Virus record (IMG/VR): IMGVR_UViG_3300011890_000001
Location: 205,066-269,065 of that record
Length of the DNA stretch: 64,000 bases
DNA from: a virus
Lineage: Duplodnaviria; Caudoviricetes
Strand: one strand, 5' to 3'
The notes beneath the pieces were generated by a model. It made no database searches, was not told the DNA's origin, and worked only from the letters and a program-made list of their open reading frames with translations. The position numbers and the translations under genes were made by a program. Below, piece after piece: positions 49,971 through 54,414 of the stretch. Position 1 is the stretch's first letter. Every line of letters starts with the position of its first letter.

Positions 49971-51923
49971 ATGTCGAACGTCAATCGCGGCAACAACAAC
50001 ACCGGCTCCATCGGCGACCAGATCTCCCAGAGCTTCGGTACCACCTTCAACAACACCACCGGCGCCCAGACTGCCGAAGGTAACGAGCGCGCCGGCCGTG
50101 GCGATCGCAGCCGCGTCAGCGACCGCGGTGGCTCCAACGTGCTGATGCGCCTGGCCACCGGCCAGAACCGTACCCGCCCGCAGGCTGACCTGGAAGCCTT
50201 CCGTCAGCGCCTGGAAGAGTCCATCGGCCGCGGCTTCGCCAAAAGCGCCGTAGTGTCCAATGCTTCGGATGTCAAGGTGATCCTGCTGGATCGCGGCAAC
50301 ACCAAGTACAAGCTGGACCTGATCGCCGCCATCCTGCCGGTGTCCGCCGACGGCAAGGACCACATGGTGGTCCACACCCTGCTGGTCGCCGACGCCTCGG
50401 ATCGCTACGACAACGCCACCTGGTCTGTTGCCGGCGAGCGCTTCGAGTACACCCGCGTGGTGGGCGATGCCTACAGCGAAGAACTGACCGGCCGCCTGGA
50501 AGCCCGCATCGCCGCCATCAGCGGCAACACCAAGGCCGTCTTCGTTGACGCCGGCCACCAGTCGATCCCGGGTGGTGTCGATCTGAAGAACGAAGCCATG
50601 GTCGACAAGCTGGCGTTCTTCGTCACCGAAGCCCTGACCCGTACCGCCAAGGCGCAGGTCCTGGACGAAGTCGACGACATCATCACCCTCGGCCTGCTGA
50701 AGCAGGTGGGTACCCCGACCCTGGACATGACCTTCAGCGGCACCCCGCTGGAAAACGTCCTGGAACTGCCGGTTCGCGCCGACATCGTCACCACCCTGCG
50801 CTACATCGAGGGTAACGGCGACCGCAACGACAACCAGCAGAACCGCGCCTTCGAAGACGGCACGGACATGTCGATGGGCCTGGTGGGTGCCTACGTGGAC
50901 CTGTCGTTCGAAGCACCGGAATCGGCCGGCTTCGGTCATCAGCAGCGCACCCAGCACTACTGGGCGCACTACGTGATCACCAAGTTCGACACCGATCAGC
51001 AGTTCGTGACTCCCGAGTCGCTGATGCTGAACCTGGTCACCGCCGTCTACGGTACCCGTGACATGAACTGGGCCCGTGGTTGGTCCCAGCGCTATCGCGG
51101 CATGGGCCCGGTGTCCCACGACATCGGTGCAATCGGCTGGGAACTGCCGGGCGTTGACGGCAAGCCGGGCGTGGCGATCGATACCAGCTCCTCGAACTTC
51201 GACGACAAGGCCCTGGCCCAGCTGGTGCACGCCACCATCCGTCCGGAAATCCAGGTCGAAATCGACATCGAAGAGTCGGGCGAGCTGTCCTGGATCCACC
51301 GCACCCTGCTGGCTGAAGCTCAGGGCGACATCTCGGCCCGCAACATGCTGGTCGACGTGTTCGACAACCTGACCGATGGCGAGTTCTCGAAGATCTACTC
51401 CGGCGGCCCGTTCGCCCGCGACACCGAAAACCGAATCCACCTGGGTTACTACACCCACGAAAATTCGGACAAGCCGCGTGACATCCGCGACCTGGACTAC
51501 CTGGCAATCCTGGGTAGCTACGGCGAGGACGATCCGGAACTGGTGGTGCGCTGGCAGGAAACCTTCGACGGCACCCTGGGTGCTGAAGAGCGTCTGGCCA
51601 ACCGCGAGGAAATCATCCGCGCCCTGCTGGGCCCGACCGTCAAGATCACCGGCTATGCACGCCGCGTGCGCCTGATGCCGGATGCCCTGAGCGACGTCCT
51701 GGAAGCCTTCGAGCGTGCCGGTCTGCGCATCAAGCCGGCCGACATCCGTCACGACTTCGGTCGTGCTTCGGCTCGCGGTGCTGGCTCGCGTCTGAGCGAC
51801 ACCGGTTTCTCCGGTGGCAACCGCGTCGTGTTCTCGGGTGGCTCCGGCCAGGGTTCGGACCGTCGCACCGGTCGTACCTACACCGGCCTGAGCAACAGCT
51901 GGCGTGGTCGCGGCGGCCGTTAA
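49971..51923 (+). CDS. chmA: Chimallin, major phage nuclear shell protein (phiKZ gp54-like)
   Basis: 650 aa, extreme codon bias, disordered N- and C-termini, PVRADI, NRIHLGYY, RDIRDLDYL, TGYARR motifs; directly upstream of nvRNAP beta'-N. Confidence 0.88.
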   Translation: MSNVNRGNNNTGSIGDQISQSFGTTFNNTTGAQTAEGNERAGRGDRSRVSDRGGSNVLMRLATGQNRTRPQADLEAFRQRLEESIGRGFAKSAVVSNASDVKVILLDRGNTKYKLDLIAAILPVSADGKDHMVVHTLLVADASDRYDNATWSVAGERFEYTRVVGDAYSEELTGRLEARIAAISGNTKAVFVDAGHQSIPGGVDLKNEAMVDKLAFFVTEALTRTAKAQVLDEVDDIITLGLLKQVGTPTLDMTFSGTPLENVLELPVRADIVTTLRYIEGNGDRNDNQQNRAFEDGTDMSMGLVGAYVDLSFEAPESAGFGHQQRTQHYWAHYVITKFDTDQQFVTPESLMLNLVTAVYGTRDMNWARGWSQRYRGMGPVSHDIGAIGWELPGVDGKPGVAIDTSSSNFDDKALAQLVHATIRPEIQVEIDIEESGELSWIHRTLLAEAQGDISARNMLVDVFDNLTDGEFSKIYSGGPFARDTENRIHLGYYTHENSDKPRDIRDLDYLAILGSYGEDDPELVVRWQETFDGTLGAEERLANREEIIRALLGPTVKITGYARRVRLMPDALSDVLEAFERAGLRIKPADIRHDFGRASARGAGSRLSDTGFSGGNRVVFSGGSGQGSDRRTGRTYTGLSNSWRGRGGR

Positions 51924-52130: not shown

Positions 52131-54414
52131 ATGTCCTCCGAAAACATCGGGATCGTTCCGCCGCGATTGCCCGAGGAAAGCCCCTTCCGTGTCGTGCGTC
52201 GACCCGGACCGAATCATCTCCGCAAATACGATGGTATTGCGATGCGTCTGGTCGACTTCGATCGACTGTTCGAAACATCGCCCATCACTCCCGCCATTGC
52301 AAACCACTTTGACGTTTCCCAGGAAAGCGAACGAAAGATCCTGGATAGTCTGATCTATACCCACTTTGAAGGCGATAGCCTGAACTCGGTTCCCGAGTGC
52401 CAGTGCGGGTTCACTCGCGGTGCTGGTAAGGCGTACTCGATTTGTTCACGCTGTCATTGTCAGGTGGTGCCTGTCAGCGAAAACAAGCTGGTCCCGTTGC
52501 TTTGGTTGGCACCCCCGGAAGGTGTGGATGTCTTCATCCATCCTCAAATGTGGTCGATGCTCTCCAAGGCACTCACTCACGGTAACGTGAACGGCCTCCA
52601 GTGGATGACCGACCCGAATATGGTGGTCAGTCGGGAACCCCACGCCAACATTCGTACTATCCAGTCCATCCTCCATGAACTGGGTGTGCCGCGAGGGATC
52701 AATCACTTCCACAAGCGTTTCGATGAAATCGTTGAGCATCTGTTCAACAACAATGTCGTATCGGCAAACACGAAGCAGCAGAAAGAAGACCTCTACCAGT
52801 TTATCCAGTTTAACCGTTCTAAGATCTTCTGTCACTATCTCCCGATGCCGTCCCGTACGGCATTCGTGACTGAGCGTTCGGCCACTGGTTCGTTTGCCGA
52901 CATGACGATCCGACCGGCAATTGATGCGGTGCGTACGATCAGTTCAACGATCAATCCCCTGGTGCCCTACAACGAGAAGAAACTCCAATCGTTGTCGGTG
53001 CAGGCTAACCGCTTGATGGCCCAGTACCATCAGGACTTCATGAGTAAGACCCTGACGGGCAAGTCTGGTTTCTTGCGTCATCGTACGTTCGGTTCGCCAC
53101 TGCGTTTCACTTTCCGTGCAGTGATCTCAGCACTGGCCCACGCCCATAACCCCAATGAAATCCACATTCCGTGGGGCGTTGCGGTATCGACGTACCAGTA
53201 CCACATCCAGGCCCATCTGTCACGTATGACCAACCCGGACACGGGGAGGCCGTACTCGGTCAATGAAATGATCGGCCTGTTGCGTGCCCACACCCATGTC
53301 TACCATCCGGTGATTGCTGAGATCTTCCAAAAGATGATCGACGAGTCGCCGTACATGGGTTTGCCGATGTTGCTCAACCGTAACCCGACGCTGGATCGCG
53401 GTTCCATCCAGCGTTTCTATATCACCAAGATCTTCGACGATCCCAGCATCAATGCAATTGCAATGTCGGTGCTGTGCTTAGTTGCGCCAAACGCGGATTG
53501 AATAATCATCCAAGGTATTTGACTTTGGATGATTAAGTCCCGTCTACCGGTAACGGTAGACTGAAATCTCTCTAATTGCTGGAAACCCCTTAGAGCCTCA
53601 CTACCACTGCGAGACGAAAGTCAAAGCCAAGGTTTGAAAAGTGTGAGGATTGGGCAATCAGCAGCGAAGCTCCCTGTCTGGGAGAACGTTCAACGACTAT
53701 GGCAGGCATGCCAGTACGCTCAAGCGGGCGGAAATGGGAGACCCCTAATTAAAGGGTGAAGATATAGTCTGGCCTGTAGGGAAATCCTACAGCTGCGCGT
53801 AATGGCGCGGATACCTCAGTAGCGCGAGGTATTGACCAAAGCGTTCGACGGTAGTACTGCCGTCATTAAAACCTCTCTAATTGCTGGAAACTCTCGAAGG
53901 GTCACTAACCACAACGTGGACCGCAAGGTCGAGCGTGACGGTTTGAAAATAGTGACTTATGAGACAATCAGCAGCGAAGCTCCCCATGTGGGAGAACGTT
54001 CAACGACTAGCCGAAAGGCGTAGGCGATCAAGTGATTGCCGAAACGGGAGGTCCTTCGCATAGAAGGAAAGATATAGTCTCATCTGCACGGTGACGTGCA
54101 GACACCAGAGGCTGGAACCAATGGTGGTCGGCCTAACGAGCCGATAGATATACAGGCTAGACGATGTAGAGTTGTTGAATAGAACCTAAATAGGATTCCA
54201 GTCCTGGTTCGAAATAAATCACCTGTATGTCGATAAGATAATGGACGCACTCAACGGCGCACCACTGCTCGATCACAAGTTGGCACGTGGTTTCGAATGT
54301 CTGGCCCCTTACATGGGGTTGAGCGATCTTGAAAAGCCCAGGAGCTTCTCGGGTAATCAGAAGTTCCCTGTGCAGGTAGCAGCAGCAGTCGCTAACTGGC
54401 TCAGGCACGGGTAA
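52131..54414 (+). CDS. Non-virion RNA polymerase beta'-N subunit (phiKZ gp55/gp56.1-like), spliced: join(52131..53498, 53844..53852, 54244..54414), 515 aa
   Basis: Exon 1 has a zinc-binding CQCG..CSRC, RAVI and NRNPTL and ends PNAD. Exon 2 (TTCGACGGT) encodes FDG. Exon 3 reads DALNGAPLLD...LAPY...ANWLRHG*. Joining restores NADFDGD in frame. Confidence 0.92.
53499..53843 (+). mobile_element. Group I intron 1 (IA2-like, ORF-less, 345 nt)
   Basis: 5' exon ends in U pairing with IGS GUCCCGU; P AAUUGCUGGAAA, Q AAUCAGCAG, R GUUCAACGACUA, S AAGAUAUAGUCU; P7.1/P7.2 hairpins; terminal G at 53843. Confidence 0.92.
53853..54243 (+). mobile_element. Group I intron 2 (IA2-like, ORF-less, 391 nt)
   Basis: P1 GACGGU/GCCGUC with a U.G wobble at the splice site; same P/Q/R/S elements; extended P9 region; terminal G at 54243. 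Confidence 0.92.

Follow-up and report, generated by a model that had tools for sequence, protein, structure and literature searches.

The beta'-N locus and its predicted spliced product

The window analysed here, a stretch of 64,000 nucleotides (64 kb) from a 269-kb viral record, carries on its plus strand a chimallin gene (49971-51923; PF25677, E 6e-38), which marks the context of a nucleus-forming phage, and directly downstream of it a beta'-N gene that is broken at NAD/FDG/D by two introns. Exon 1 (52131-53498, plus strand) encodes residues 1-456 and ends in N-A-D (AAC GCG GAT), with the first catalytic Asp. Exon 2 (53844-53852, plus strand) comprises 9 nt, TTC GAC GGT, which encode F-D-G with the second catalytic Asp. 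Exon 3 (54244-54414, plus strand) encodes 56 amino acids, starts with GAC GCA CTC AAC, so that the third catalytic Asp is its first residue, ends in TAA, and is a homolog of phiKZ gp56.1. The catalytic aspartates D456, D458 and D460 are thus distributed over exons 1, 2 and 3, respectively, as an earlier note on this sequence had described; its exon and intron coordinates, lengths and splice-edge bases agreed with the sequence base for base.

A phmmer search aligned exon 1 with residues 21-437 of the phiKZ gp55 chain (7ogp_A, E 3e-72), the alignment reaching N-A-D, and exon 1 matched the protein of Xanthomonas phage RTH11 at 57%. The sole match of exon 3 was 7ogp_A 443-493, weak by itself (E 0.57), and exon 3 is contiguous within the 58% alignment to RTH11. 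Joining the three exons by script yielded a protein of 515 amino acids that was 58% identical over 497 amino acids to the intron-free RTH11 protein, from end to end and across the motif without a gap; the expected homology to phiKZ gp55-56.1 was borne out. Homology along the whole subunit, including NADFDGD, the position after chimallin and the presence of a separate virion beta' paralog all correspond to the phiKZ-type beta'-N subunit of the non-virion RNA polymerase (nvRNAP). On these grounds the gene is identified as encoding the beta'-N subunit of a phage nvRNAP, homologous to phiKZ gp55-56.1, from an uncultured nucleus-forming giant phage.

Translation by script showed that retention of intron 1 stops the protein at residue 456 and that retention of intron 2 removes the third Asp. 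ORF calling yielded the 456-amino-acid product, and this is the form stored in the databases, in line with the prediction that the gene would be annotated as a truncated protein. The 269-kb record held no second intact copy of the beta'-N gene, and the single intact DFDGD found elsewhere in it is flanked by sequence like that of the virion paralog. At another place in the phage's own genome (L009:1510-1856, about positions 112280-112625), an intein-like start follows an N-L-C motif in the gene located there.

Architecture of the two introns

Intron 1 (53499-53843, plus strand; 345 nt) has no ORF, intron 2 (53853-54243, plus strand; 391 nt) has no intact ORF, and the last base of each is a G. 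Rfam model RF00028 matched intron 1 with 76.8 bits (53501-53792, E 9e-18) and intron 2 with 80.9 bits (53843-54101, E 6e-19), both above its gathering score of 50; exactly two RNA families were found by Rfam in the 64-kb window, both of them group I introns. The covariance-model check thus confirmed the group I identity that had been proposed.

The guide in the P1 of intron 1 (53537-53540) sits at the base of a long hairpin, the P1 extension (53502-53536, plus strand), whose loop is occupied by an HNH gene in relatives; in site-1 introns the guide lies at a fixed 35-36 nt before the P motif. The remaining helices of intron 1 were mapped as P2 (53542-53561), P3 (53567-53572/53736-53741), P7 (53693-53699/53765-53770) and P9-P9.2 (53774-53832). 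Intron 2, which lacks P2, folds with its P1 guide (53859-53864) paired to the last six bases of exon 2, followed by P3 (53872-53877/54046-54051), P7 (54003-54009/54075-54080), P9 (54084-54101) and a closing stem (54148-54156/54222-54230). All core helices from P3 to P9 were present in both introns. In both P1 folds (z -7.6 and -3.2 relative to shuffled sequences) the predicted 5' splice site carries a U.G pair, and the guanosine site was complete in both introns, with intact P7 strands and terminal G53843 and G54243; the U.G-containing P1 and terminal G proposed for the two introns therefore stood. In both introns, P7 is separated from the 3' strand of P3 by two hairpins, P7.1 and P7.2 (53700-53735 and 54010-54045), which on inspection of the Rfam alignment mark them as IA2-like.

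Between the two cores there are four candidates for a G followed by a 9-nt exon ending in T, only one of which reads FDG. Placing the terminal G of intron 2 at 54244 was rejected, since the one-base shift breaks the frame. A nested arrangement (twintron) was also rejected, because the introns stand in series around coding bases and each site is occupied singly in relatives.

We infer that in vivo each ribozyme excises itself with its own guide, using the U.G pair in P1, the guanosine site in P7 and the terminal G. The P1 of intron 2 uses six of the nine bases of exon 2 and none of exon 1, so either order should work; the 3' splice site of intron 1 would need only the first bases of exon 2, and the splicing order is probably free. 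An enzyme with all three aspartates would require both introns to splice. Two runs guessed to be RNA contained only short pieces of exon 1 and unrelated intron cores, none of them spanning a junction, and a promoter and terminator scan stayed at chance level.

Neither intron contains an endonuclease gene. A remnant of an HNH homing endonuclease, consisting of its last ten codons and stop, was found in intron 2 only (54157-54189, plus strand). A search of the record, which is about 90% complete, revealed no HNH_3 or GIY-YIG domain and no free-standing helper nuclease.

Intron history and the distribution of alleles

Exon 1 falls in a 90% cluster of five members, and comparison with close relatives (88-96% identical) fixes the predicted intron boundaries and their likely history. 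In L185 (89% identical) intron 1 is absent and N-A-D-F-D-G is uninterrupted, and intron 2, an element of 1362 nt, carries an HNH gene of 325 aa in the 3' loop. Without the HNH gene this element is 97.7% identical to intron 2 of the window, in which 953 nt are deleted just before the ten-codon remnant. L010 (89%) has intron 1 with an HNH_3 ORF in the P1 loop and the same 5' arm as in the window, and L183 has intron 1 without a nuclease. In L184 (96%) both introns are present around the same exon 2; there, intron 2 keeps the start of the HNH gene, and intron 1 a longer leftover or leader of the lost ORF, including a ribosome-binding-like sequence. With endonuclease genes present in introns of L185, L010 and L024, the series reads as the standard homing life cycle, run twice side by side by two separate HNH homing introns whose nucleases have since been lost.

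The record is a metagenomic assembly and splicing is deduced from its sequence, so the locus might be a pseudogene or an assembly artefact. We regard this as highly improbable, since the independent contig L184 shows both introns around the same exon, the catalytic elements are all intact and no further intact copy occurs in the record. The window and L184 are 97.7% identical in their introns (intron 1 alone, 97.7%) versus 87% in exon 1 DNA (13% diverged), as would be expected of functional ribozymes or of recent transfer.

The earlier note had called the introns twins, which holds for two introns in tandem and fails for kinship: their cores are about 75% identical and belong to different lineages. 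The core of intron 1 is nearest to a site-1 intron, that of L024 (85%), and the core of intron 2 to a site-2 intron, that of L167 (75%, support 98), in a tree that is poorly resolved and in which insertion sites do not form clades overall. Tandem duplication in this lineage, with one intron derived from the other and its guide retargeted, would explain why the two cores are among each other's better matches and would have parallels in L025, L030 and L126, where neighbouring introns group together, and in the common P6a segment of the L184 introns. However, for each intron a closer match than its neighbour is found at the corresponding site of other phages, which argues against local duplication; the architectures differ (P2 present versus absent, HNH gene in L1 versus the 3' loop); and close relatives carry each intron together with a nuclease of its own, intron 2 standing alone in L185 and the distant AR9 using site 2. 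A duplication is thus largely refuted and, in our judgement, quite unlikely. The P6a segment is long and near-identical in both L184 introns (L184:1720-1760 and 2045-2085) and short in intron 1 of the window and of L024, which suggests gene conversion between neighbouring introns.

Anatomy, homology, the allele series and the nuclease deletion can all be read directly from the sequences, and we consider it likely that the locus holds two unrelated HNH-type homing introns nine bases apart, with nucleases lost by deletion, both ribozymes intact and both splices needed. The two introns would have invaded the NADFDGD codons because a catalytic motif that does not vary offers a stable target and because losing an intron from it imprecisely is lethal; each nuclease gene would later have been deleted within a loop, leaving two intact ribozymes. 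According to reviews, introns favour active-site codons (PMC12908238). We infer that the introns persist because their imprecise loss is lethal.

For the wider distribution, about 170 loci were collected with an alignment query, a single-sequence locus search having returned nothing, and splice points were placed by script under a T/...G/ rule (slashes marking splice points). A pattern scan (0 matches with a TTC exon, 3 with a TTT exon) was too strict for counting tandem pairs. Dereplication at 95% left 101 alleles, in counts that omit L011, L142 and L157, which the script could not place, AR9, and loci cut off by contig ends. Rfam supported most of the multi-intron loci checked, some predicted introns (the second of L032, and others in L140, L169 and L171) falling below the cut-off. 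Of the 101 alleles, 60 were intron-free; in the other 41, introns occupied ten sites in a stretch of 24 nt. Two or three introns were present in 13 alleles, with up to three in the loop.

Sites 1 and 2 were the commonest (20/101 and 17/101), and the pair with its 9-nt exon proved recurrent, not singular: it occurred in 8/101 alleles against 3.4 expected under independence (Fisher p 0.005; p 0.02 and 0.04 at looser dereplication of 85% and 70%), an association that is suggestive only, as the eight include the window itself and one clade of three. The 9-nt F-D-G exon was also seen in L025, L032, L132, L140, L169, L171, L174, L180, L182 and L184. On the host tree the site pair required 6 changes, 5 of them forced by strong branches (about six places), and has therefore been gained or lost repeatedly. 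The 750 nt upstream are identical in L160 and L156, but the two loci differ in two nuclease-free introns and in splice-site codons, which would fit exchange of the pair as one block and not clean cDNA-mediated loss.

The guide at site 2 covaried with the exon, GACGGT exons being matched by GCCGTC or GCTGTC and GATGGT exons (L067, L140) by GCCATC. The location of the nuclease varied with the site: every site up to +10 places it in the 5' loop, and sites +15 to +21 mostly in the 3' loop, with L025 and AR9 as exceptions. The first Asp was encoded by GAC rather than GAT in 70/82 intron-free alleles, which thus lack the U needed at site 1; this preference may reflect either codon bias or resistance.

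Several loci were more elaborate. L180 (2694-4215) has four group I introns in the beta'-N gene, three of them in the loop with exons of 12 and 9 nt, and L174 has three introns with exons of 11 and 9 nt. The site-2 introns of L169, L171 and L174 lack the usual IA2 motifs and had no Rfam match, and each is preceded by a site-1 intron whose 3' end is very short; they probably represent another subgroup at the same site. In L181 (3141-3150), a 9-nt F-D-G exon lies between two introns of an apparent virion beta' paralog that continues D-T-S, and the same two sites may be used in both polymerases.

Independent selfish homing alone leaves the positive association of the two sites unexplained, as well as the scarcity of nucleases in multi-intron alleles (7/29 introns nuclease-bearing versus 19/30 other introns, p 0.004), and it does not account for an intron homing to a site nine bases from another while leaving that neighbour in place. 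Some phage HNH nickases also cut intron-bearing alleles. It is nevertheless conceivable that nuclease-free introns are kept as a shield, breaking the target of HNH enzymes from co-infecting nucleus-forming phages, two introns covering both common sites; both the association and the nuclease scarcity are consistent with this, and the HNH enzyme of a PhiPA3 intron is a weapon against phiKZ (PMC11620839). The same patterns would be produced by hitch-hiking or by lineage differences in intron load, the lethality of imprecise loss already accounts for persistence, and most alleles are intron-free. We therefore propose only tentatively that NADFDGD is an arms-race hot spot, in which the intron pair and its micro-exon travel as a cassette kept as a shield, and in which exon skipping could add a dead subunit as a cost or control.

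The earlier note had also made middle and late transcription depend on two splicing events. Such dependence follows if the gene is essential, as in phiKZ, given that there is no other intact copy; as a function it is unsupported, because 60/101 alleles are intron-free, the closest relatives vary and both introns derive from HNH homing introns by deletion of the nuclease. In a regulatory gate, the level of active nvRNAP, and with it the timing of middle and late transcription, would be set by splicing of both introns or by skipping of the 9-nt exon; in favour of such a gate, skipping of exon 2 stays in frame and would give a dead 512-aa subunit without F-D-G. The cores, with their cross-compatible P3 and P7 strands, are alike enough (75%) to form one chimeric ribozyme, which is how exon skipping has been proposed to occur in Twort orf142 (PMC10136302), and an on-switch role of phage introns has been suggested, as a proposal only (PMC11878797). 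However, the guides are specific, with cross-pairing of about 3 bp versus 4-7 at the right site on sequence inspection; intron state varies among close relatives; and Rfam detected no riboswitch-like or other added element in the 64-kb window. A gate of this kind has no positive support and appears unlikely.

Significance and comparison with known systems

For this gene and motif, group I introns are already known from phiKZ and AR9; tandem introns with short exons are known from Twort. Within the literature accessible without subscription, we found no paper on multiple introns within the NADFDGD codons or on a micro-exon with a catalytic Asp. Rather than a new system, the locus represents a known selfish element in an exceptionally crowded arrangement. 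Its interest lies in the density of selfish ribozymes in the most conserved RNA polymerase motif. The four allele states among close relatives offer a ready test of coexistence, co-movement or mutual protection of homing elements a few bases apart, in phages whose genomes occupy separate nuclei, and the locus is a natural minimal system for exon inclusion versus skipping by tandem ribozymes. In practice, about four of ten sampled alleles of this marker gene are cut short by gene callers, and their catalytic motif is missed.

The closest counterpart is g270 of Bacillus phage AR9, the same gene, with an intron at the site of intron 2 (after D-Y/F-D-G) and the same GCCGTC guide; GenBank annotates it as joined from two pieces. 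Unlike the window, AR9 has one intron, with the HNH gene (g271) inside the core region, and no micro-exon. Phage Goe21 (L178) carries the AR9 gene without the intron, which provides a cultured intron-plus/minus pair for site 2 (PDB 7s00_d / 7s01_d). In phiKZ the orthologous gene (gp55/gp56/gp56.1, gp56 being the HNH gene) has a group I intron in the same motif, and the spliced fusion is an nvRNAP subunit with the DFDGD loop; however, its single intron follows the Asn codon, at a position six bases ahead of that of intron 1, so that the three Asp codons share one exon, and its nuclease is intact. The DFDGD aspartates of the phiKZ subunit bind catalytic Mg (PMC7618050), and the phiKZ nvRNAP, which contains the spliced gp55-56.1 fusion, is essential (bioRxiv 10.64898/2026.09.21.753271). 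Under the conditions of one long-read study, the phiKZ introns were not seen to be spliced (PMC10914365); the spliced protein is nonetheless established. The phiKZ sister phage PA7 has its intron after the last Asp, and phiKZ, PA7 and LucasX have one intron each, at sites other than those of the window.

One exon of orf142 of Staphylococcus phage Twort is reportedly about as short as 9 nt. Its tandem IA2 introns resemble the pair in their close spacing and short exons, and in a similar intron pair an exon of 23 nt is skipped (PMC10136302), but the Twort introns interrupt a tail gene and not a catalytic motif. The intron in the virion RNA polymerase beta gene of PhiPA3 (gp210) likewise carries an HNH gene and interrupts a chimallivirus RNA polymerase at conserved aspartates (PMC11620839), although it is a single intron in a different subunit and its nuclease is active. 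Two homing elements at adjacent sites of a conserved gene are also found in the haloarchaeal inteins MCM-a and MCM-d, whose double alleles arise mostly via invasion of single alleles (PMC10643990); those elements use protein splicing, whereas the pair in the window is spaced by nine bases and has lost its nucleases.
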